Origin: Nitrosopumilus sp.
Lineage (GTDB): Archaea; Thermoproteota; Nitrososphaeria; Nitrososphaerales; Nitrosopumilaceae
Assembly (NCBI GenBank): GCA_963662625.1
Contig: OY759726.1
Location: 1,536,001-1,600,000, forward strand
Length of the DNA stretch: 64,000 bases
Direction of reading: 5' to 3'
Part shown: piece after piece, positions 16,581 to 31,102 of the stretch
Numbering within the stretch: position 1 is the stretch's first letter
Layout: each line of letters starts with the position of its first letter
The notes under the pieces: model-generated
What the model was told of the DNA's origin: nothing
The model's database searches: none
The model's input: the letters and a program-made list of their open reading frames with translations, nothing else
Made by a program: the position numbers and the translations under genes

Positions 16581-16729
16581 TAGGTAAAAGCTGACGATTT
16601 ATCTAGATAAATACTATCCCCAACGGGTGCCTGCTGCCCGGGAGGCGGCCGCGCCTGCCCGGGGAGGGGCGGGGCGCCGGGACGGGGGGCGATCTGTTGA
16701 AAATACAGAAATACCTGAAATTTGCATAC

Positions 16730-18790
16730 ATGCTTATGTCCTCGCCACAGCTGCGCGTCAGGGGGCCGGCCCCGTCCAGAAAGTCCGGCGTATACGAGGT
16801 GGAGATCGCCCTTGCGGGCTCCAGGCCGTCAGACGGCGCCATAAAAGCCAAGGGCTTCCGGCCCCTGTGGAAGGGTTCGTTCCACCTGCGCGTGAGCGAC
16901 GGGACGTTCTCCGAGGTCCTCGGGTCAGGCGACAACCCGATCCCGCCTTCCGTCGGGCAGGCGCCGGAGGTCTGGGTGGTGGTGTCAGACGTCCTTTCCC
17001 CGGCATATTCCGTTTTCAGCGCGCCGACGGGCGCCAAGCCAAAGCCCGGGCCTGCAGGCGGGCAGGATGGGCGGGATCGGCCCCCCGCCGCGGAGGTGCG
17101 CCCGCCGGAGCAGGAACGGCCGGCACCGCCGCCCCCCGCCGCGGAGGTGCGCCCGCCGGAGCAGGAACGGCCGGCACCGCCGCCCCCCGCCGCGGAGGTG
17201 CGCCCGCCGGAGCAGGAACGGCCGGCACCGCCGCCCCCCGCCGCGGAGGCGCGCCCGCCGGAGCAGGAACGGCCGGCACCGCCGCCCCCCGCCGCGGAGG
17301 CGCGCCCGCCGGCGGAAGAGCAGGCGCCTGCCCCCAAGCGCGCCCAGGAAGGCGCCGGCGAGGGGCCGCCGAGGCGGCAGTCCGGGCGCGCCACAAAGGC
17401 AGTCTCAGACGGTGCCGCGCGCCAGGGCGAGAAGGGCCTGGCAGGAGAACAGGGCCCGCCGGGCGACCGCGGCCCCACGGGCCAGCCCGGACTGCAGGGC
17501 GCGCCGGGCCCCAAGGGCTCCCCCGGCCCGCAGGGGCCGCCGGGCGACCGCGGCCCCGCGGGCCACCCGGGAATGCAGGGCCAGCAGGGCCCCAAGGGCC
17601 AGCCTGGAGAGCAGGGCCCTCCCGGGGACCGGGGATCGGTGGGGGAGCGCGGGCCGTCCGGCGACAAGGGAGCCCCGGGCCCCACCGGGATTACCGGCGA
17701 CAAGGGGGACAAGGGGGACAAGGGCCTGACCGGCCCGCCCGGAGACAAGGGGGACAAGGGACTCCACGGCGCGCCCGGAGACAAGGGGGACAAGGGGATC
17801 ACCGGCCCCCCGGGAGAGAAGGGCCAGCAGGGCCCGAGGGGCCCGCCCGGCGACAAGGGGATGACGGGCGCCCCGGGAGACAAGGGCCCGGCCGGCGACC
17901 GGGGGCCGGCGGGGGAGAAGGGCCCCACGGGACATGCCGGAGTCCAGGGCGAGAAGGGCATATCGGGCAAGCCCGGCCCGCAGGGCGAGAAGGGCAACCA
18001 GGGCCCCCCCGGCGACAAGGGCCACGCGGGCATGCAGGGCCCCCCCGGCGACAAGGGGCCGGCGGGAGCCAAGGGCCCCCCCGGCGACAAGGGAATGCGC
18101 GGCCCGCAGGGCCAGGTCGGTGAAAAGGGATCCAAGGGCCAGGAGGGCCCGGTGGGAGAGAAGGGCCCGCAGGGACTGCAGGGGCCCGCCGGCGAGAAGG
18201 GCCTGACCGGGGTACCCGGCCCGCAGGGCGAGAAGGGCCCGCAGGGGTCGCAGGGGCCCGCCGGCGAGAAGGGCCTGACCGGGGTGCCCGGCCCGCAGGG
18301 CGAGAAGGGCCCGCAGGGGTCGCAGGGGCCCGCCGGCGAGAAGGGCCTGACCGGGGTCCCGGGACCTTCCGGCGGGAAGGGCGAGACGGGGCCGGTGGGC
18401 CCGCCAGGAAGCAAGGGCCCCGCAGGCCAGGTCGGGCCCGCGGGGGACAAGGGGCCCAAGGGCCCGGCCGGCCCGCAGGGCGAGCGGGGCCCGGCCGGCC
18501 CGGCAGGAGAGAAGGGCCCGCAGGGCCCGCAGGGGATCCAGGGCCCGCAGGGCGAGCGCGGCCCGGTGGGCCCGGCCGGCCCCGCGGGGGAGCAGGGCCT
18601 GCAGGGAAACCAGGGCCCGGTGGGCCCGGCGGGGCCCAGGGGGCCGCCCGGGCCGCCCGGCGAGAAGGGCGCGGGCGGGGGGATGCCCGCGGAGCAGAAG
18701 GCGCTGCTCAAGGACCTGCTGGAGATTCTCACCGACAAGAACGTCATCACGACGGAGGAGCAGATCAAGCTCATGAGCAACCTGTACTAG
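16730..18790 (+). CDS. Collagen-like protein (globular N-domain, Pro-rich linker, ~138 Gly-X-Y triplets, helical C-terminus)
   Basis: Uninterrupted Gly-X-Y from 17426 to ~18670. Confidence 0.93.
17081..17312 (+). repeat. 51-bp tandem repeat, about 4.5 copies ([17 protein letters not shown])
   Basis: Units start at 17081, 17132, 17183, 17234 and 17285 (partial); near-identical. Confidence 0.95.
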
Positions 18791-18803
18791 GAGGGCATGC
18801 GGG

Positions 18804-19088
18804 ATGAGCGAAAACAGGGAAAAGATCGAGTTCGAGATGCTGGACTACAGGAGGCTCGAGAACGACTTCGTGGCATTCGAGCTGGAGGACGGGACGGTGG
18901 TCAAGGTCAAGGTCGACCTGGACAGGGTCGGGAAGGCAGTGAACTTTACGAACCCCGACGGCACGCCGCACTACGCGATCAACACGGCGGTCAAGCTCTC
19001 CATAATGCCGCCCGGCAAGAGGTTCACGGTGCACAAGAACTCCGCCAAGGGTAAGAACCCGCACCCCCCGGACCAGATGTTCAGCTAG
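18804..19088 (+). CDS. Conserved hypothetical protein, probably co-transcribed with the collagen gene
   Basis: 94 aa, ELEDGTVVKVK; 13 bp after the collagen stop, GGAGG upstream. Confidence 0.8.
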   Translation: MSENREKIEFEMLDYRRLENDFVAFELEDGTVVKVKVDLDRVGKAVNFTNPDGTPHYAINTAVKLSIMPPGKRFTVHKNSAKGKNPHPPDQMFS

Positions 19089-20952: not shown

Positions 20953-22461
20953 TTACGTCAAAAGCAGGAATGCCGAGGCCGGGACTACGTATTCCTGCCT
21001 TGTCTCTAGGCGTGACTTTGAGATAACCAGCCCGCTTTTGGCGCCGGTCTTGCCAAGGAAGCTGGCCAGCCCTGCCATCTCCCTGGGGTTGATCCTCCCC
21101 CTGTATTTCACCTCGATTGGGACCTCCATGCCGTTTACTTTAGACAGGACAAAGTCCACCTCCCTTTTTTTTCGTCCTTCCAGTAGAATACGTGGTTGGA
21201 ATGGTCAAATGTCTGTTTTTTGTCACTCAGTGCAAAGGCCCACCCGTTCAGGTGATCTGCCATGATGCCCTCCACGATCTTGCCCCGGTTGCCCTCATCG
21301 TGGACGTATTCCAAGCTGGCATCAAAGCTGCCATCCGTGCTTATCAGGCCATTGAATATGTGCAAAAAATAGGGGTCGCTAAAGTAGATTTTTCTGTCGC
21401 TTCTCGCCATCGGTATTTTCCTGCCCCCGCCATACCTGCAAATGGTTGACAAGACAAACAAGTCCTTTAGGGCATGCGCATAACCAAGAGCTGTGTTTGG
21501 GCTACCCAGATCTGCCTCTTTGGAAAGGTTATTCCACGACGTATGGCTTCCCTGGCTTTTGATTACGGCCCCGCAAAACTGCTTTAGCATAGTCTCGCTT
21601 TTTGAAAGTGCGTTCCATTCGCCTGTAATCCCCTCCAAATGACTCGTATACAGGCTTTCGCCTATGGCAGGTGCCTTGATCTTTTCGTCTACCACCCTTG
21701 GAGTTCCCCCGGCCAGCATGTATTCTTCCAAGAGTCCGCCTAGTTCATTTTGGCATGCGCAAAAGGTGTCCAAGGTCTCGCCAATTTCCCCGCTCAGCAG
21801 TTTCATGAATATGTCCTTTCTGTGATCCAAGGCAGGCACGTGATTTTCCATAACTAAATCATTGATGTCGCTACTCGCCACCGATGCATACTCTGCAAAC
21901 TTCATCGGGAGTAAAATCTTGTCGTAATTGTCGGCAACCCTGCCCCTGCGGCCTGGCAGTCTTTCTGCGGCATTTCTTATGTTGATTGCCTGTGATCCAG
22001 TGGCCATGACTGTGCAATTTTTTAACTTGTCGCCGTCAATTAGCCACTTGATGCCTTTCTGCCATTCAGGCACTGATGAAACCCACCCAAGAATAGGCAG
22101 CAACGATTATCCTTGCGCTGCCTGGAACTTATTCTCAGGTAGGTTTCAATAACATCAACCACGTCCTGCCGCGTACTGGCTAGATCCAGTGCATAGTATA
22201 GAACGTTCCACGGAGAGACATTCTTGTCCAACAAATCCCCTATCTGCAATTTAACCAGAGTTGTTTTGCCTACTTGCCTTGGGCCACGAAGTGAATACAC
22301 CACAGTATTGGAGGGTTCAAAATCAAAAGTAACATTGTGTTTGAGCCTGGGAATGTATCTTATTGCCGAGTCTCCCCATCCCTTGATTTTCGGGTCATTT
22401 TTTATGCTTGCAGGATCTTTCCACCAAGGATTCGAATCCCGTACTTCCTTTCTCGAGTCAT
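20953..22461 (-). pseudogene. AAA_14/DUF4143 ATPase with C-terminal PD-(D/E)XK domain, frameshifted
   Basis: Three fragments: NPWW...GPRQVGKTT; TGS...GGTP...KIYFSDP; DFV...IEVKY. Frameshifts near 22455, 22085 and 21165; Walker B destroyed. Confidence 0.88.
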
Positions 22462-22471
22462 ATTTATGTTG

Positions 22472-22568
22472 ACTGAAAGGTTCTTTATATATTGGGCACA
22501 AAACCACTGAAATGTCCTTTATATATTGGTCGCGAACCCACTGAAAGGTCCTTTGTATAATACGGCCC
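22472..22568. repeat. Three tandem 34-bp units with a conserved ACTGAAAKGTYCTTTRTATA core
   Basis: Units start at 22472, 22506 and 22540. Confidence 0.85.
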
Positions 22569-22678
22569 AAGCGTCCAGCGCCAGTCCAGTGGACACGACT
22601 GGCGCAAGATCGGCCCCGACATCCTTTCGCCCTGCAGTACTTGTTCGGGGCGCATCCGGCACCTTGGCTGATCCCTTT

Positions 22679-23389
22679 TCACGGCCAAGACCTGCGTGGG
22701 TTTGCAATACGTATGCCCCGAGAAGGGTTCCAGCACCCGCGGATTCCCCGGCCGGCCATCACCGGCACTCGCCCTGACTGTTTTGCCACATCTCGGGTTG
22801 TTCTCTGGTGCTTCTGAATGCTGCCAACTGACCTGCGTGGGAGCCGGCGGCCTTTCCCAAACTGTAGCATACGCAAGAGCCCCGCAAGCAGGTTGGTTGG
22901 CAGATCTAGCCATGAACTGGACTTGAGTGATGCCACAAGCCGCTTAAAACTGGCGTAGCCTTGCAGTTTTTCGCAGTCCAGCCTTTCTGCATATCTGGGC
23001 AACTGGTTCTTTGTGTAGTTCTTATGGTGCCTTAGGGCGTCTGATGGTTTCTGGTCACCAAACCGGATGCCTTCTGAATGGCATATCCATTCTTCTATCT
23101 CGTGGTCCAGCAGTACCACTTTGACGAACTCTTTATCCTCGTCTTTAACATGTTTGAGCACTTTCTTCATCTTCTCTTCAAGGCTTTCGCCATCCGCATC
23201 CGCAATCACTATGGCCCGATCCACCTTTCCCACGTTTGCGCTAATCATCCTGCCCATCTTGCTTCCTATTGGACAGCGAATAACGCGTTCCAGCCTGCCG
23301 CCAAGAACCCCCTCGGAATTCTTTTTATGGAAAAACCTTGGAAAAAACACCTGGCCAAAGCAGTCTTCTACCAGAAAACAGAGTTTCAT
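22679..23389 (-). CDS. TOPRIM-like (OLD/DUF4276-type) partner of the ABC ATPase
   Basis: FLVED, IADAD and EIEEW acidic motifs; ATGA overlap with the ATPase; last ~75 aa probably read-through. Confidence 0.65.
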   Translation of the reverse strand: MKLCFLVEDCFGQVFFPRFFHKKNSEGVLGGRLERVIRCPIGSKMGRMISANVGKVDRAIVIADADGESLEEKMKKVLKHVKDEDKEFVKVVLLDHEIEEWICHSEGIRFGDQKPSDALRHHKNYTKNQLPRYAERLDCEKLQGYASFKRLVASLKSSSWLDLPTNLLAGLLRMLQFGKGRRLPRRSVGSIQKHQRTTRDVAKQSGRVPVMAGRGIRGCWNPSRGIRIANPRRSWP

Positions 23390-24693
23390 AACTCACCATA
23401 CAGCCACGATTCGCTAGCAGTAATGCCCTTGCTTTGTAATTCTTTTCTCAGTTCGCCTGGATTTTCAACCTTGCGGCATGTGCTTTCCTCCTTGTTCGTT
23501 TCCAACAGAACCAAGTCGCCAATATCGACATAATCTACGACAAGTGGCGAATGACTCGTGACTATCACGGTGGATTCTGTGTTTTTTAACAAATCCACAA
23601 CGTATTCTATAATCCTCGCGTGCAGTGATGTCTCTATCTCGTCAATCAGAATAATCCTTGGTTTCAGTTCAATGGCTGCAAGAATTGCCAGTAACTTGTA
23701 AAACCCATCGGGTATGGAGGTTGGGGCAAGTGTCATCGTGCCCACATTTACTTCCATTATTATGTTTCCCTCTTGAGTAATTTGGAATGATATCTGCCAG
23801 TTGGGAAACAACGCTTCAAGTGCAAGTGTGAAGATATCAGGAAGCTTACGTTTTTCGTTAAACCATTTGAACAACAAGTTTACCAAACCGTCTCCGTCCT
23901 CATCTAGCTCGTCAGAATAGTTGACGGGAGTTGATTTACGCAGGTAATCATAGTTTAATTGCCTTAGCAGGATGATGTTTCGTGGATCAACCAGATAGCT
24001 TGCAGCTAGCGCATACAGTGATCTAGCAATCCTGTTATTTTTGATGGGGGGTGACGGAAAACTGTACACTTTCAGCTCGTCGCCATCAAACATGCCAGCT
24101 CGTAGCAGAAAAATGGCAGTTTTCCCCATGCGTTCGTGCCACTTTGTGGCGTTGAGAATAGACACGTCGCTGTCATTATGTGGCACCGTGAAGCCTTTTT
24201 CCAAATCAATCGAATCCCTCTCCAGTATTCGCCTAAGCCGTGTTTTTTCGCCAACGGAGTTGACTTCCTTGATGATGGGAGGCTTGAAGTGATAGCCGAC
24301 CTTGTTAACATCAAGCGCCACGTCTAGGTAATCTTCAATCTGTATTCTCTCTTCGAGTATCCCCAACCGGCCGTTGTTTGAGCCCGTTACCGTAAAGTCA
24401 TAAATGACGTTGCGGCCGTCCACAACATAACTGATCTGCGAGTGGATCGTCTCGGATTCGTCACCTCTCCACACTATGTTTCGGTACCCTCCCCAGTCCG
24501 CAAAAGGATATGCGGGAGTCTTTTGCGGCGACACGCATAAATTCACAAATTTAATCAGCTCAAGCACGTTTGTCTTGCCGGACCCGTTTGGCCCAATCAG
24601 CACGTTGAATTGCTTGAGCGGGATCTCGAAATCCTTCAGGCTCTTGAACCTTTTAACCTTGATCTTGGTGAGCGTCTCCATATTGACAAGCAT
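23386..24693 (-). CDS. ABC/AAA_21-family ATPase (defence-associated type)
   Basis: FKSL, IGPNGSGKTN, signature PDG, LIDEIETSLH, TSHSP; AT-rich. Confidence 0.9.
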   Translation of the reverse strand: MLVNMETLTKIKVKRFKSLKDFEIPLKQFNVLIGPNGSGKTNVLELIKFVNLCVSPQKTPAYPFADWGGYRNIVWRGDESETIHSQISYVVDGRNVIYDFTVTGSNNGRLGILEERIQIEDYLDVALDVNKVGYHFKPPIIKEVNSVGEKTRLRRILERDSIDLEKGFTVPHNDSDVSILNATKWHERMGKTAIFLLRAGMFDGDELKVYSFPSPPIKNNRIARSLYALAASYLVDPRNIILLRQLNYDYLRKSTPVNYSDELDEDGDGLVNLLFKWFNEKRKLPDIFTLALEALFPNWQISFQITQEGNIIMEVNVGTMTLAPTSIPDGFYKLLAILAAIELKPRIILIDEIETSLHARIIEYVVDLLKNTESTVIVTSHSPLVVDYVDIGDLVLLETNKEESTCRKVENPGELRKELQSKGITASESWLYGEL

Positions 24694-25065: not shown

Positions 25066-26958
25066 TCACATCCTGTCCGGGGCGGATATGCCGAGCAGGC
25101 CCAGCGCCCCCCCGAGCGTGGCCCTGAACGACCCCACCAGGAACAGCCTGGCGTCCTCCAGCTGCGCGTCGCCGGCCCCCAGGACGCGGACCCCCTCGTA
25201 GAACTCGTTGAACGAGACGGCCAGGCCGTGGCAGTACCTGGCAATGACCTTGGGCGACAGGTTCCTCGCGGCGTCGCCCACGTGCATGCCGAACATCCCT
25301 ATGCCCCTGACCAGCCCCAGCTCCGCGGGTTCGGCCAGCAGGGCAAAGTCGGCGTCCTCCGGGGGCGCGCGGCCGGCCTTTTCCATGATGCGGGCCGCCC
25401 TCGCGTTGGCGTACTGCATGTACGACGCGGTGTCCCCCTCGAGGCTCAGCGACCTGGCCAGGTCGAACGTGATCACCTTGTCGAGGTCCTGCCTCACCAT
25501 CTCGTAGCGCAGGGTCCCGACGGACACCTGGTGGGCTATCTCCTCCACCTCCGCGCCGCCCATCCCCGGGTGGCGCCCCGCGGTCTCCTCGGCGGTCCTG
25601 CCCTTCAGCAGGTCGTAGACGGAGTCGGCGTTGACGTACAGGCCCTTCCTGCCGGACATCTGCGCCTGCCTCCCCCGCGTGTCCAGCCCCAGGGTCCTGG
25701 CGGTGTCGGGGCTGAGGGTGACCGACTCGTAGCCCAGGTGGACGTACGCGCCGCCCGGCCTGAACCTGGACATCAGGTCTGCGATGATCTTCTGGAGGCG
25801 CGCCTGCCTGGAGTCTATCACGGTGATCACCCTGTCGCCAGAAAAGCGCGTCGCGCCCCCGCCGGGCCCGCCGCCCCCGCCGAGCGTGGTCTGCCACAGC
25901 GCGCGGCCCCCGGGCTGCCCGCGCTCGTACGGGGCGTACCCGAACGGGTCGTCCAGGACGCCCATCTTCCACGCCGCGTACGGGATGTCCTTTGCGATGT
26001 ACGTGGCGGTGCCGTTGCTCCGGACTATCACCTTGTCCTCCTCGCCGTCCCGGCCGCGGATCACCCAGCACCCGGCGTTCTTGCCGCCCTCCTCCAGCTC
26101 CGCCAGGCCCATCCCCTTTAGCCTCTCGAAGACGCCGCGCCACAGCCCGGAGCGGACTATCTGCGACTCGAAGTTGAGGCAGTCGTACGTCACGCCGAGG
26201 TTCCAGCACGTCTCCAGCTGGCACGCCAGGACCCTCCCCGTCACCCTGCCTGCGAACCGCGCGGTCTCGGACCCCCCGTCCTCGATCTCCTTGAGGGTGT
26301 CCTTCCTGACTGCCTCCAGGCCCGGGTCCTCCACGTACCTCGCGGACGTCCGGACGTAGACGTCGTCGCCGCAGTAGTGGTCGAACTTCTTCCCGTCCGG
26401 GGGCTCCTCGGGGAACCCCAGGTGCCTGAAGCCGATCACGATGTCGGCCACCTGCAGCCCCGAGTCGTCGACGTAGTTCAGGACCTTCACCCTGTAGTTG
26501 GCCTTCCGCAGGATCCTGGCCACGGTGTCCCCCACCACGATGTTCCTGACGTGGCCTATGTGGAGGGCCTTGTTGGGGTTGACGCTGGTGTGCTCCACCA
26601 CCACGGGTGAGCCGCCCCCCAGGTCGACGTCCCCGAACCCGTCGAGGCGAGACCCCCGCAGGATCAGCCCGCAGAGCCTGCCCCAGTCGGCCCGAAAGTT
26701 GACATAGCCCGAGTCGTGCGGCTCGGCCCCCGCCACCAGGGGGCCGGCGCGCCCGCGGTACCTGGCCGCGATCTCCCGGGCCACCTCCCCGGGGCCCTTC
26801 CCGAGGCGCTTGGCCAGCAGGAACGCCGCGTTGCAGCTCGCGTCGCCGAACCCCGGCCTCGAGGGCGACACCGAGAAGCCGGCGTCCCCGGCCCCCATGC
26901 CTGCCAGGACCTCCCTGACGCCGCCCTCGATCTCGTCGAGGAACGCCTGGAACGTCAC
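25066..26958 (-). CDS. argS: Arginine--tRNA ligase
   Basis: EHTSVNPNKALHIGH.RN, MSGRKG, YMQYANAR, C-terminal PDRM. Confidence 0.97.
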   Translation of the reverse strand: MTFQAFLDEIEGGVREVLAGMGAGDAGFSVSPSRPGFGDASCNAAFLLAKRLGKGPGEVAREIAARYRGRAGPLVAGAEPHDSGYVNFRADWGRLCGLILRGSRLDGFGDVDLGGGSPVVVEHTSVNPNKALHIGHVRNIVVGDTVARILRKANYRVKVLNYVDDSGLQVADIVIGFRHLGFPEEPPDGKKFDHYCGDDVYVRTSARYVEDPGLEAVRKDTLKEIEDGGSETARFAGRVTGRVLACQLETCWNLGVTYDCLNFESQIVRSGLWRGVFERLKGMGLAELEEGGKNAGCWVIRGRDGEEDKVIVRSNGTATYIAKDIPYAAWKMGVLDDPFGYAPYERGQPGGRALWQTTLGGGGGPGGGATRFSGDRVITVIDSRQARLQKIIADLMSRFRPGGAYVHLGYESVTLSPDTARTLGLDTRGRQAQMSGRKGLYVNADSVYDLLKGRTAEETAGRHPGMGGAEVEEIAHQVSVGTLRYEMVRQDLDKVITFDLARSLSLEGDTASYMQYANARAARIMEKAGRAPPEDADFALLAEPAELGLVRGIGMFGMHVGDAARNLSPKVIARYCHGLAVSFNEFYEGVRVLGAGDAQLEDARLFLVGSFRATLGGALGLLGISAPDRM

Positions 26959-27653
26959 CCCCTGCCGCCCCCGAGCGACGGCGCCAGCTCGTCGAGCGCC
27001 TCGAGCACCCCGTCCCCCGCGCCGGCGGAGACTGCCATGGTGGCCTCGGACCGCACCCCGCCTGGCGCGTTTCCCAGGGCCACGCTGGTGCCCGCCGCCC
27101 TGAACAGCGGGACGTCCGTGGCGCTGTCCCCGATGGCGATGACGTCCTCCTCCCGTATGGACATCCTCCCCATCAGCTCCCTGAGGCCCGCCCCCTTGTC
27201 TATCCCGCGCGAGTTGATGTGGTACGCGTACCGGCTGTCGGACAGCGCGACGTCCAGGCCCCTCTCCCGGGCCAGGTCCCGGGCCAGGTCCAGGTCGAAC
27301 GTGCGCTGCAGCACGACCTCGGTCATCCTGGGGAACACCGGCTTCTCGACGACCCCGTCGATCCCGGCCCGGATGATCTCCAGCGCGTCCCTGCACTCCT
27401 TCATGTCGCCGAGCAGGACGTGCTCGTTGGCGCCCAGCGTGATGCACCCGCCGTTCTCGCCCACGGCGGCCTTGGTCGTGCCCCCGAAGACGGACAGCAG
27501 GAACCCCTCGACCGACGACCGCCCCGTGACGAAGATCACGTTGTGCCCCGAGTCGGCCAGGTGGCGCAGCGCGGCCAGCGCCCCCAGGTGGATGCGCCCC
27601 CCGCCGTTCTCCGTGATCGTCCCGTCGATGTCCACCGCGAACGTCTTTGCCAT
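26955..27653 (-). CDS. Phosphoglycolate phosphatase (archaeal HAD, SPP-like)
   Basis: DIDGT, TGR, ENGG, DKG.GL, GDSATD. Confidence 0.9.
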   Translation of the reverse strand: MAKTFAVDIDGTITENGGGRIHLGALAALRHLADSGHNVIFVTGRSSVEGFLLSVFGGTTKAAVGENGGCITLGANEHVLLGDMKECRDALEIIRAGIDGVVEKPVFPRMTEVVLQRTFDLDLARDLARERGLDVALSDSRYAYHINSRGIDKGAGLRELMGRMSIREEDVIAIGDSATDVPLFRAAGTSVALGNAPGGVRSEATMAVSAGAGDGVLEALDELAPSLGGGRG

Positions 27654-27848
27654 GATCCGGTACCCAGGAGCCGAATAATATTTGCTACGCATGCCGCCGG
27701 CAGCGTGCGCCAGGCGGGCGCGGCGCCGCCCCGGCGCAAACCCAGATCCCAGTTGGATTCATGCCTACTGGGGCAACGGCCACGCTGATTTTGTGCCTAT
27801 GGCGCCATGGGATCTGAGCATGCACGTAGGGCCTACCCATTAAATTTT

Positions 27849-28819
27849 TTAAGCGTTACTTGGTTGAGGCGGTCCGACATAATCGGCGACGAATTTTTCA
27901 ACTTCTGCGAGGTGGCTTAAACAGAACACGCGGCCGTTGCCTGGGACATCATAAAACTGCTCCTGCCTGTCAGAAGTAAAATACATTAATTTATCGTATG
28001 GGATATTTGCCGCTTGCAAATTTTTGATTTTGCGATTAATTACTTCAAGAATGTTAGAGCTGTCTCCCTGCTTGGTGACTTCTGCAAGAATTAAGCGTTT
28101 ATCTGTAGTTACGGCGATCACATCAATTTCTAAACCGGGTCGAATTTCGCCGTTTTCGTACATTTGAATTTTTTTATGAACATATATCTTTTCAATAAAA
28201 TCTAATTTTGCTAACGCAAACCCAATGAACACTTCATAAATCCAACTGCTGTCAAAAACTAATAGCCCTTCTAATATCTTGGGATAATTAACATCGATTT
28301 TATGTATAACGCCCTTGCCTCCGCACAGCTTACATTCAGAAATCAAGTCCAATTTCTGAATACGGGACACCTGGTAGCTAAACGGCAGTTGGTTATGTTC
28401 GTACCAGCAATCAAGGCACTTGGATTCGATAGATAAAGTAACATGTTTGGCTAACTTACCCAGCGCCGTCGAAATTTGTTGCTTCTGATCAGGCAATTTC
28501 AAGAATTTGTTGCTCATGGAAATGGAGTTTTGTCTTGCTTTTTTGGATAAACTCGCATATTTTTCCACATCAGCTAGGATCTGATGTTCGTAGGCATATT
28601 CACTAAATGTCTGATACGTATCGGTGTTAATGTCTTCTAATTTTTGATTATCTTTCAGAGCTTTTTGAACACTATCTGTAAAATCATCAAAAGTGGACGT
28701 TCTTGATTTTAACACGCGTGAAACTTCAGAATTTGAAGATATGGTATCAAAAGTGGCAGAAAAGATATTTTTCCATACTTCAAAAATTTCCTTTTGGTGT
28801 ATGCTCATTCGTTTCTCTA
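27849..28819 (-). pseudogene. 3' part of an IS630-disrupted gene (Zn-finger + PD-(D/E)XK nuclease-like)
   Basis: CLDC and CKLC motifs, EIDVIA...LAEVTK; joins in frame with 29926-30258 once the IS is removed. Confidence 0.75.
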
Positions 28820-29925
28820 GAGTGACGCTCACAAATAATTTCTCCCCTGGGAGGTCGCACTGCAGAAAAGCCTGTTGATCGCCGGATCGCCGAACCATCC
28901 ATGGACGAGACCGACAGGAAACTACGGGACCTGACGGAGGCCATGCGCGCAGGGAGGGACGCCAGGATCCGCAACAGGACGGTGGCAGTGCGCGGGGTGC
29001 CCGGCGGATACCCCGCGAGTGACGCCGCGTACTTTGCGGACGCGGGACAGCGCACCGTCCGCCTGCGGGCGGGACGGCCCGGCGACGGCGGCGCCGGCGG
29101 CCTCCGGGACATTCCCGGCAGGGGAAGGAACCCGCGCGTCCGGTACGGCCCCATGGGCGGGCCTGCAGGCAGGCCCGGCCGCACGGGCATGCCCGCGCCG
29201 GGGAGGCCCCGCGACGGGACGCGCCGGAAGCCCGGGCGCGCGCACGGCCCGCGCGGCGCGCGCGGGATCACGGGGGAACCGGGGCTCTCCCCCAAGGGGC
29301 CCACGACAGGTTACGCCGCGGCCGCAGACGACGACACGGTGCGGCGGCGGCGGGCCGACGCGGCAGGCGCGGTTGCGTGCGCAAGGAGGCGCAAGACGGC
29401 GACAGTCGCGCAGGACGGGCCCGCCTCCGCCGGGACGGGAACCGACGGCAGGAGGCTCTGGTCCCGCGCAGGGGAGGGGGCCGCCGCCGGCAGGCCCGGC
29501 AGGAGGGACAGGGCAGCCGCGTGCGGCTCCCCCGCGGCCGACGGGACGGGGCCGGTGCGGCCGTGCGGCAGGTCCGGCGGGGACACCTTCCTGACGTACC
29601 CCAGGGAGATCCGGCGCGAGCGGGGGCGCGCGCTGGTGATAACGGGCAACGCGGGGCAGCACAGGGCGGCGGACGTGAGGGAATACCTGCGGGACCACCG
29701 AGAGATCGGGGTGCCGTGCCTTCCCACCGCCACGCCGAAGCCCAGCGCGGTCGAGGCCGTGTGGAAGGAGGCAAAGTACGGGCTGGTCACGTCAAGGCAC
29801 TACGAGACGCTGGATGGACTGAAGCGTGCGGTCTCGGAGTATTTCAGGACGTGCCCGATCAGGGTGGACATCTACAAGTTCCTATACCGTTCCATCTGAA
29901 GGGAAATTTTCAATGATCGTCACTA
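28820..29925 (+). mobile_element. IS630-family element with a degenerate transposase (ORF 28901-29899)
   Basis: Inverted ends GAGTGACG/TAGTGACG...AATTTC; TA duplication at a CTAG target; HTH (GLRDIPGRGR) and DDE remnants (QDG, GNAGQH, LPTATP..SAVE..WK). Confidence 0.9.
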
Positions 29926-30258
29926 TAGTTTCTCGTTTTGTTGTTTGTAGTCAGCTCTTTCTTCCAGGCTTTGCGCAAAATTGTAAGAAGGATCTAAACA
30001 GAAAGGATAGCTCATAACAATGCCAGAAGGCCCATAACCTGTCAAGTTAGAATCGGACTCAAGAAATAAAAATTTCAGCAATATTGGATTATCTGCTACT
30101 TCGAGAACAATTTTAGAACTAATACTTTCTAAACCTTTAAACGATTCAAAAAGAACCTCCTTTTTTGTTTTAACCACGCGTACTCTTTCATTATTTTGTA
30201 GAGTAATGTCAACTTCGGTTAAGAGGTGTGGGATGACCTTTTCATAAGACAATGTCAT
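29926..30258 (-). pseudogene. 5' part of the IS630-disrupted nuclease-like gene
   Basis: Stop codon is supplied by the IS end; reading frame continues into 28819. Confidence 0.75.
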
Positions 30259-30521
30259 CTGTGAGGATTTTTAAGAATAGATTTTCCTCGTTTTGTTAAA
30301 GTCAATTTAAAATCATCGCCCTCTTCATCACTATACACCTTGTTTGATTCAATAATTTTCAGTACCAATAACTTTCTGATCTCGGTTGAAATATTATTTA
30401 CATCTCCATACCTTTCAACAAGCTTAGCGTTATTAATCAGCGTGGAATATGAAACCCCATGGTCAGAAATATACTCCATAATTTGATAAGATAGCAATGG
30501 CGGCTCGCTAATTTCACTCAT
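30255..30521 (-). CDS. Small winged-helix-like protein
   Basis: 88 aa with IRKLLVLKIIE...LTLTKRGK wing; ATGA overlap with the downstream gene; AT-rich. Confidence 0.6.
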   Translation of the reverse strand: MSEISEPPLLSYQIMEYISDHGVSYSTLINNAKLVERYGDVNNISTEIRKLLVLKIIESNKVYSDEEGDDFKLTLTKRGKSILKNPHR

Positions 30522-30683
30522 GTTGAATATTCAAAAAATTACTAATTAAATCTTCGGTAACTGTATGCTAGCCTAATAAACATTGTGTCAATTCTAGTCT
30601 TCTCTATTGTACATAAATTAGGTCGCACTAACTTGAGGAGGCTTGCAAAGGATTACTTTACACTTTACCGATCAAGAAAACCG

Positions 30684-30880
30684 ATGGTAACCAGGCTGAC
30701 CGGAAGGCAGATCAGGTACGCCGTAGCCCAGAGGCAGGAGGGGAGACCGGCTGCGGACATTGCGGCGGAGATCGGGGTGACCGTGAGGCACGCCCGGAGG
30801 CCGTACGCAGAATTCGTCATGACTGGCGCCCCCCACGCGCCGCGCAGGGCCGGGAGGAGGGCGCGCGACATGCCGTTCTC
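30684..30880 (+). mobile_element. Transposase N-terminal HTH fragment (IS481/IS3-like), degenerate
   Basis: MVTRLTGRQIRYAV...DIAAEIGVTVRHARR. Confidence 0.6.
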
Positions 30881-30949
30881 GCTCGTGAACCCGGACGGCG
30901 CCAGGTACAGCGTGTCTGGCGCGCCGGGCCCGTTGCCGGGGACGCCCTG

Positions 30950-31102
30950 CCAGGTGGCCGCCCTTCCCGCACCGCCTGCAGTGCCCGCTCTCCCTGCCGC
31001 TGCTGCATGAGGGCCAGGCGGGTCGGGACGGCGTCAGCCCGCTACTCACCCGTGTTGACCACCCAGGCGTGGTTGCCACGTGCACTGGATCTGATGATGT
31101 AC
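30950..31102 (+). mobile_element. Right-end fragment of the GTACA-ended IS family
   Basis: Homologous to 47765-47908 and 42251-42330; ends CTGGATCTGATGATGTAC. Confidence 0.7.

Follow-up and report, generated by a model that had tools for sequence, protein, structure and literature searches.

The window analysed here is a stretch of 64,000 nucleotides (contig OY759726.1, positions 1,536,001 to 1,600,000) from the complete 1.86-Mb genome of a Nitrosopumilus sp., hereafter G000, which has a guanine-plus-cytosine (GC) content of 63.4% and carries an archaeal amoA gene. Between core genes of ~68–70% GC it holds an AT-rich accessory island, in which a probable nuclease gene is interrupted by a dead, GC-rich insertion sequence (IS) of the IS630 family, referred to hereafter as copy A. 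The features of the locus, in window coordinates, are as follows.

27840..30600, no strand: AT-rich accessory island, ~36% GC excluding the IS (composition profiles)
27849..28817, minus strand: C-terminal 322 codons of the interrupted 433-aa gene (open reading frame list; homologues 41–56% identical)
28818..28819, no strand: left copy of the TA target-site duplication (sequence and excision test)
28820..29925, plus strand: dead hypermutated IS630-family element, copy A (1106 bp, 72% GC)
28820..28842, plus strand: left terminal inverted repeat, almost identical to the same end of the intact relative from genome G008
28901..29899, plus strand: degenerate transposase frame of 332 aa (DDE_3 match below cut-off; alignment to the intact G008 copies)
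29903..29925, plus strand: right terminal inverted repeat (inverted-repeat pair; nearly identical to the G008 ends)
29926..29927, no strand: right copy of the TA target-site duplication (sequence and excision test)
29928..30258, minus strand: N-terminal 110 codons of the interrupted gene (open reading frame list, excision and homologue alignment)
30255..30521, minus strand: upstream partner gene of 88 aa (open reading frame list), with a 4-nt overlap with the start of the nuclease gene

Excision of 1108 bp, that is, the element together with one TA, restores a single minus-strand frame of 433 aa with a terminal stop only, while excision of the 1106 bp of the element alone leaves a frameshift. 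This confirms, as do the uninterrupted homologues described below, the claim of an earlier note on this DNA that an IS at 28820–29925 lies in an AT-rich gene and that its removal with one TA gives back 433 aa. The insertion target is C-TA-G at copy A and also at another full-length copy of the element, copy C; the TA target of the IS630 family often lies within CTAG. In 50-bp windows the GC fraction is 0.28–0.36 to the left of copy A, reaches up to 0.86 inside it and is 0.28–0.42 to the right, with a step from ~30% to >60% accomplished inside 50 bp and values of 0.31–0.38 within 100 bp on either side. Three public runs of a single study, possibly the assembly's own source, gave contigs that span both junctions with 0 differences. 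No contig joint in these runs skips copy A, a result uninformative on empty alleles since contigs drop rare variants and the assembly may derive from these very runs, and the variant letters found within copy A in these contigs derive from other family copies.

At least five copies of the family adjoin DNA of 31–44% GC, and copy C, with flanks of 31–44% GC and an intact TA duplication, replicates the setting of copy A. Of the 26 composition steps of at least 35 points in G000, three are at the copy A locus and four around copies C and D. CTAG is about threefold denser in windows of <45% GC (2.05/kb) than in the bulk of the genome (0.64–0.85/kb), and insertions in accessory islands are presumably more readily tolerated.

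The features of IS630 membership found in copy A are a DDE_3-type domain, the TA duplication and terminal inverted repeats, imperfect as these are (26-nt arms, 77% complementary); the intact D-D-E triad expected of an autonomous element is absent, which makes it a dead member. Its transposase frame scores 27.5 bits against DDE_3 (cut-off 28.6), or 29.1 bits in the genome scan, compared with 40–42 bits for copy C and 83.8 bits for the intact orthologous copy in the related genome G008. Although copy A alone is borderline, its homology to the IS630 family (IS630/Tc1-mariner superfamily) is clear as judged from sequence comparison. The first catalytic Asp and the Glu are retained and the second Asp is replaced by Gly, so that the catalytic death proposed in the earlier note holds. 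In copy B, Gly replaces both the second Asp and the Glu, and the start codon has gone; in copy C, Gly replaces the catalytic Glu. Because each catalytic residue persists in at least one copy, the common ancestor of A, B and C had a full D-D-E. Gly, Ala, Arg and Pro (G+A+R+P) make up 54% of the residues of the copy A transposase against 34% in the intact relative, and its identity to the intact G008 copies is 52%.

Three full-length copies are present in G000, namely A, B (genome positions 1665197–1666304, minus strand) and C (399900–401005), along with six partial copies; all are 85–91% identical to A and differ from it mainly by transitions. No near-identical copy of A was found in G000, the nearest being about 90% identical, nor was any full-length intact IS630 helper transposase: among 18 matches to the copy C protein, full length is reached only in A, B and C, and the best DDE_3 score in the genome (54.6 bits) falls on a truncated frame. 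Copy B is flanked by the dinucleotides CA and GT rather than TA/TA (CA at G000:C1:1666305–1666306, the left flank in B's own orientation). The CA could reflect a T>C change just outside the element, the sole possible spill-over observed.

The outgroup consisted of the three G008 copies of this IS, all intact (DDE_3 and helix-turn-helix (HTH) domains and D-D-E present, 57–60% GC, ends nearly identical to those of A), and changes were polarised over the 978 sites at which all three agree. We denote changes from A/T to G/C as W>S and the reverse as S>W. Copy A has W>S transitions at 142 of 395 A/T sites and S>W transitions at 17 of 583 G/C sites; the corresponding values are 168/396 and 21/583 for copy B and 108/395 and 28/583 for copy C. 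Private changes comprise 15 W>S transitions, 2 S>W transitions and 4 transversions in A, 38, 2 and 2 in B, and 3, 9 and 2 in C, and loads among the three copies are thus very unequal. Changes acquired after the copies diverged are nonsynonymous in 95 cases and synonymous in 3, and were therefore unfiltered by selection. Compared with one another, the G008 copies show an ordinary spectrum (W>S/S>W/transversions of 18/13/16, 29/42/48 and 12/30/36), and the W>S signature therefore belongs to G000 and not to the IS family.

On the branch common to A, B and C, W>S changes affect 32 of 51 third-position A/T sites as opposed to 56 of 301 first- and second-position sites, and this branch is a mixture of divergence of a working element and hypermutation. 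Along copy A, the fraction of A/T sites converted in successive 100-bp segments is 17, 27, 50, 53, 59, 42, 54, 46, 37, 22 and 10%, a profile that matches the GC-extreme middle and spared ends noticed earlier. By sharing class, W>S transitions number 15 in A only, 38 in B only, 3 in C only, 31 in A and B, 5 in A and C, and 7 in B and C. These six partial-sharing classes fit independent events on ~124 susceptible sites (χ2=1.18, 2 degrees of freedom, p=0.55) with per-copy probabilities of 0.47 for A, 0.67 for B and 0.18 for C. The pattern is not a strict tree, since a strict tree would empty two of the three pair classes. The same model predicts just ~7 triple events by chance; 91 W>S transitions are common to A, B and C. 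Thirteen of these 91 sites remain A/T in a fragment copy, often as adjacent pairs, and part of the shared class is therefore parallel.

The changes are also coupled in space. They occur in pairs on opposite strands, 2–3 bp apart, and typical events are TGGA>CGGG, TGA>CGG and ACGT>GCGC; same-base pairs are not enriched. Against 2000 position- and base-matched shuffles, T..A pairs 3 bp apart number 4 in copy A (null mean 0.4; 0/2000 shuffles reach 4), 9 in copy B (null mean 2.1; 0/2000 reach 9) and 2 in copy C (null mean 0.2; ~1 in 80 shuffles reach 2). Observed/expected ratios of T..A and A..T at 2–3 bp, a measure of motif depletion, did not discriminate between element, outgroup and island.

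The gene into which copy A is inserted belongs to a very small family: a protein search of 5.8 billion clustered proteins returned five homologues (41–56% identity), and among 60 related genomes the only match is a sixth uninterrupted homologue of 423 aa in genome G016 (38% identity), which also has a two-gene layout, with 87 aa followed by 423 aa. The two halves of the interrupted gene are collinear with the five uninterrupted homologues of 387–433 aa, with no gap at the junction. The protein has four invariant Cys, invariant Asp, Glu and Lys columns and a zinc-ribbon-like motif in its C-terminal part, and no Pfam or PADLOC family match was found. A weak structure model (mean predicted local distance difference test score of 58, and 70–82 in the C-terminal part) gave weak Foldseek matches, none at E≤0.001, nearly all of them PD-(D/E)xK nucleases, with EndoMS/NucS, Can2/Card1, Bax1 and restriction enzymes at the top; the 56%-identical homologue is labelled as Cas4/RecB family by one source. 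We suggest that the gene probably encodes a nuclease, with a candidate PD-(D/E)xK-type core and a small partner protein.

The earlier note had taken the absence of any other lesion in this gene as a sign that it had not decayed. That argument is uninformative, because A:T>G:C transitions create neither new stops nor frameshifts, at most changing one stop codon into another, and an open frame is blind to them; in our simulations, runs averaged no more than one stop, the terminal one, at every rate tried. Once the lesion test is replaced by composition and conservation, the locus can serve as the test of hypermutation that the note had proposed. The restored protein retains 69 of the 78 columns invariant in its six homologues, much as the intact sister P0002 retains 69 of 77, and its G+A+R+P content is 14.5% compared with 13.4–14.6% in the homologues. 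Just two of its nine departures from invariant columns, Lys>Glu and Ile>Val, take the form of a single W>S transition. Had the gene mutated at a uniform rate of 18%, the post-divergence load of copy A, ~14 of 69 residues would have been lost in simulation (5–95% range 8–19). Context-specific rates derived from the IS predict ~71 changes on 819 host A/T sites with 6.8 residues lost, and the probability of two or fewer is 0.02. The gene was thus unexposed to most of what hit copy A, with exposure to the last few per cent possible, and the note's view that it shows no GC-ward shift is upheld. The comparison of its halves with uninterrupted relatives that the note had called for could be made in part: collinearity and conserved residues are retained, and no orthologue closer than 56% identity was found. 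Excision of copy C leaves just an 89-aa frame across the junction, so that no clean second gene test was obtained.

A second family in the same genome, an IS110-like element of 1423 bp, is present in eight full-length copies, including G000:C1:1194284–1195705, 719418–720840 and 728463–729885, one of which encodes an intact transposase of 363 aa (98 and 78 bits for two Pfam domains). Two copies at different sites are 100% identical, with identity stopping at the element ends, and what separates them from the intact copy is 44 W>S transitions, with 0 S>W transitions and 0 transversions. Forty of the 44 are nonsynonymous, mainly in adjacent-codon pairs, and they include an Asp>Gly change in the N-terminal Gly-Ile-Asp motif. 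Further copies carry 89, 97, 144, 186 and 199 changes in largely nested sets (43/44, 88/89 and 171/186). Two sister lineages have 1 and 45 private W>S changes. In old copies the private spectra are ordinary, one example being 34 transversions, 19 S>W and 20 W>S. Mutated and catalytically dead IS110-like copies were thus copied in trans to new sites, with an intact helper in the genome. The earlier suggestion that a dead IS was moved in trans therefore applies to the IS110-like family, where both an identical copy and an intact helper are present, and finds neither in the IS630 family. Because the identical pair differs from its helper by 44 W>S changes only, a special mutator is still needed.

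At the three loci examined (718, 729 and 1195 kb), the IS110-like copies each adjoin an end of a 1.28-kb repeat, a pattern suggestive of site-specific insertion. This repeat, family X (G000:C1:718141–719417 and seven other full-length copies), shows graded W>S loads, its eight copies having G or C at 18 to 75 of 98 polymorphic columns. Its most mutated copy (718 kb) adjoins a 44-change IS110-like copy, a single case that we did not use as evidence for mutation in place.

We consider it probable that an element-restricted, episodic process of paired A:T>G:C changes mutated copy A and spared the host gene. In outline, an IS630-family transposon inserted at the CTAG of an accessory, probable nuclease gene and duplicated TA. 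An episodic process would have converted A:T to G:C in the DNA of the element and not in the surrounding gene, acting on both strands of the duplex, often through paired changes 2–3 bp apart, most strongly in the interior and most weakly in the terminal 100 bp. It would have killed the transposase by turning the second catalytic Asp into Gly and raised its G+A+R+P content from 34% to 54%. The host gene would never have been exposed and would have undergone only ordinary background mutation since insertion. Such a course would call for a dedicated, element-restricted mutator of duplex DNA, possibly with an adenine-to-hypoxanthine activity.

As to timing, the chances that most changes in copy A were acquired before or during its move, by attack in the mobile phase with dead copies moved in trans, seem to us a little short of even. 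The IS110-like precedent, the conserved ends in all copies, and the sharp boundaries with intact TA duplications favour this order of events, as do the many changes common to A, B and C and the resident intact IS110-like helper and identical pair that remain unmutated. The view that the changes were made in place and confined to the element is somewhat less probable. It draws on private spectra of the hypermutation type in some immobile fragments, such as fragment F, in which 17 of 26 singletons are W>S, on the independent loads of each copy, and on the strand bias of the private changes of A (12 T>C vs 3 A>G, P=0.005), which a local effect might produce; one case of a heavily mutated element adjoining a 44-change IS110-like copy could be added to these. 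Tentatively, we propose that the agent could be a genome-defence mutator that recognises transposon DNA, perhaps a transposition intermediate or a transposase-engaged element, changes A to G on both strands and kills the element while sparing host DNA. The ~3-bp geometry of the pairs would suit a dimer reaching across one groove.

This reading would still require an enzyme, its gene and a means of recognition, and several observations weigh against it. Core genes of G000 lie ~25 GC points above those of its genus relatives, which means that a genome-wide GC-ward force exists or existed, and the third-position excess on the common branch fits ordinary GC-ward amelioration while the element was functional. 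Much ordinary divergence also took place on that branch (88 transversions), and the outgroup is distant from copy C (~70% nucleotide and ~60% amino-acid identity). Hot sites make parallel and inherited events hard to tell apart, and the nested sets of the IS110-like family could represent either a genealogy or a hierarchy of site susceptibility. Among A/T sites with at least six A/T among their eight neighbours, 0 of 42 copy-sites are mutated, all of them in the element ends. In the flanks, changes are not directly countable, as the host gene has no close orthologue (best 56% identity) and nucleotide-level comparison is impossible; nor can they be polarised within G000, because no paralogue of the flanks was found there except short IS relics past the island. 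At a simulated rate of 5.4%, corresponding to the 15 private changes of copy A, ~4 of 69 residues would be lost, which the observed conservation does not clearly exclude, so that the power of the test is limited. Apart from these points, endonuclease V (PF04493) was found in 13 of 36 related genomes searched and not in G000, in its genus relatives G001 and G002 (40% GC), or in G008. Its absence does not explain the GC shift, because the relatives with 40% GC are also without it.

An alternative account would have genome-wide GC-ward drift enrich an old dead IS, with the AT-rich island arriving recently and the dead copy moved into it by a helper that has since been lost. The core genes (~68% GC in G000 against ~40% in two genomes of the same genus), the third-position A/T sites, which changed most on the common branch (32/51), the trans-mobilisation of dead copies in the IS110-like family and the intact terminal repeats of copy A are in keeping with it. 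Drift would not, however, couple changes across strands at 2–3 bp, produce 44 W>S and no other changes in one IS110-like lineage or 1 and 45 private changes in sister lineages, leave old resident copies with ordinary private spectra, or load A, B and C as unequally as their fitted probabilities indicate. It also lacks an intact IS630 helper and any copy closer than about 90% identity, and each of the at least five family copies adjoining DNA of 31–44% GC would require its own late move. We therefore regard it as unlikely. Slightly less likely still is a general process to which AT-rich surroundings are refractory, with GC-rich tracts running away to GC while the host gene and the IS ends stay untouched. 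The raw table does contain such an effect: the W>S fraction is 24%, 14% and 5% with 0, 1 and 2 A/T among the two adjacent bases, the AT-dense sites with none of 42 changed conform to it, and 554 of 812 scored host A/T sites have at least five A/T among eight neighbours. Context and position are confounded, however, because the unmutated AT-dense sites all lie in the element ends, and within element columns 200–900 the effect is nearly gone (28%, 17% and 17%). In one stretch of the same sequence, copy B is 56% converted and copy A 22%; GC-rich non-IS duplicates are without the signature; and context-specific rates still predict the ~71 host changes, at P=0.02 for the conservation seen. The earlier proposal of a refractory AT-rich context thus has a basis in the table, and is insufficient to account for the host gene.

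GC-biased gene conversion among dispersed IS copies would explain spared flanks and ends without a special enzyme, as unique flanks are without a partner and repeat edges are seldom within tracts, and some multi-base clusters, including a transversion in the catalytic Glu codon, are common to B, C and D and not to A; a few such shared clusters may be conversion tracts. Conversion, however, spreads existing variants, yet private changes are already biased towards W>S (15:2 in A and 38:2 in B). Sharing among copies fits independence rather than tracts, pairing is specific to opposite strands at 2–3 bp with no enrichment of same-base pairs, and a pair of 98.4%-identical 6.9-kb duplicates is unbiased (21 vs 29 transitions, 65 transversions). 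We find this account very improbable. Mutation induced by duplication as such was rejected: the long non-IS duplicates (6.9 kb at 98.4%, 6.1, 3.4 and 2.1 kb) have more transversions than transitions and no one-sidedness, the 6.9-kb pair showing 50 transitions and 65 transversions, while IS-type repeats of 1.4–2.7 kb have one-sided transitions (108 vs 6 and 65 vs 3). With non-IS duplicates ordinary and the identical IS110-like pair unmutated since its duplication, the earlier idea that the mutation targets repeats is not supported. Mutagenesis by a diversity-generating retroelement, in which a reverse transcriptase copies a template repeat into a variable repeat and any base may take the place of adenine, was likewise rejected, as the changes are transitions affecting both strands (in the IS110-like pair, 44 W>S and 0 transversions; in copy B, 38 of 42 private changes); no template/variable repeat pair was found, and no search for a reverse transcriptase was made.

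Elsewhere in the window, the stretch at 30585–31100, just past the island, has ~72–75% GC and holds a frame that looks, by eye only, like the N-terminus of an HTH-type transposase; similar to short pieces elsewhere in G000, it is probably another hypermutated relic. A 697-aa collagen-like protein with Gly-X-Y repeats and internal tandem repeats is encoded at 16697–18790 (plus strand; 80% GC, strong A-over-T skew). The high GC of 17000–19000 was considered as a hypermutated relic and rejected, the composition being that of the codons of this gene. A second low-GC island (21135–24693, minus strand, 44–53% GC) contains the gene of an ABC/OLD-type ATPase (435 aa) that is strongly matched in PADLOC (PDC-M25A at 117 bits, HEC-01A and AriA) and that of its 236-aa partner, as well as an ATPase-like gene that is apparently split into frames of 176 and 322 aa. 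The 793-aa frame of an arginyl-tRNA synthetase (25066–27447, minus strand) extends ~490 bp into a gene for a haloacid dehalogenase (HAD) hydrolase (26955–27692, minus strand), and its long N-terminal extension, rich in Arg and Gly, probably reflects the scarcity of stops in GC-rich DNA rather than a coding sequence.

So far, no locus tests the boundary more cleanly than that of copy A, where a third of the A/T sites in the element are gone and the gene keeps its conserved residues. Open reading frames are blind to A:T>G:C mutation, and frames in such genomes that look intact and GC-rich can be dead genes. Defence by hypermutation of mobile DNA is known in fungi, as repeat-induced point mutation (RIP), and in animals (APOBEC, ADAR). 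In the portions of the literature available to us, prokaryotic insertion sequences were nowhere described as hypermutated from A:T to G:C, no hypermutation defence was described for bacteria or archaea, and natural A:T>G:C editing of duplex DNA was likewise absent. If a genome-defence mutator were indeed at work, it would be a prokaryotic counterpart of RIP and APOBEC with new chemistry, possibly a natural adenine editor of duplex DNA. According to the accessible part of one study, sponge-associated lineages of ammonia-oxidising archaea have 47–67% GC and more transposases, with no cause named there (PMC7848895). Should the process be enzymatic, it would explain the silencing of elements in a transposon-rich, symbiont-type archaeon, may bear on the unusual GC-richness of some ammonia-oxidising archaea, and would indicate an enzyme worth attention for base editing.

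The gene and the element are both ordinary, the one an orphan probable nuclease and the other a dead member of the IS630 family. Among the nearest parallels to what befell the element is RIP of filamentous fungi, a premeiotic, duplication-triggered eukaryotic process in which one-way C:G>T:A transitions leave AT-rich relics. In both cases, one-way transitions riddle transposon copies, kill their genes, shift composition relative to the flanks and differ from copy to copy. Here, however, the changes are A:T>G:C, the relics are GC-rich and the host is an archaeon, and long duplicates are untouched, as are an identical IS pair and an intact helper; we also know of no paired-change geometry in RIP. 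APOBEC3 (C>U) and ADAR (A>I) hypermutate retroelements and viruses on single-stranded cDNA or double-stranded RNA. They share with the present case clustered, one-way transitions of the deaminase type that inactivate mobile elements in their mobile phase and spare the flanks, and ADAR resembles it further in that A>G changes affect both strands of a duplex. In contrast to such targets, which pass through RNA, elements of the IS630 and IS110 families transpose as DNA, and to our knowledge no enzyme of either type is known in archaea. Natural deaminases of duplex DNA in the partial literature at hand act on cytosine only (DddA), and adenine editors there are engineered forms of TadA only.

Under directional mutation pressure and amelioration (Sueoka; Lawrence and Ochman), resident DNA reportedly drifts towards host composition while recent arrivals keep that of the donor, and part of the common third-position change fits this. 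Drift is independent, clock-like and common to all neutral DNA, whereas the changes described here are paired, episodic, unequal among sister copies and limited to mobile elements. Internal deletion and ordinary decay are the usual origin of non-autonomous elements, among them miniature inverted-repeat transposable elements (MITEs) and internally degenerate copies of Tc1/mariner or IS630. The elements of G000 resemble trans-mobilised ones in their conserved ends, their degenerate interiors and the presence of a dead IS110-like copy at a second site with a helper in the genome, and differ from them in carrying dozens of one-way paired transitions and no other change. It is the mutational process that is unusual; RIP, APOBEC/ADAR and amelioration each fail on defining features.

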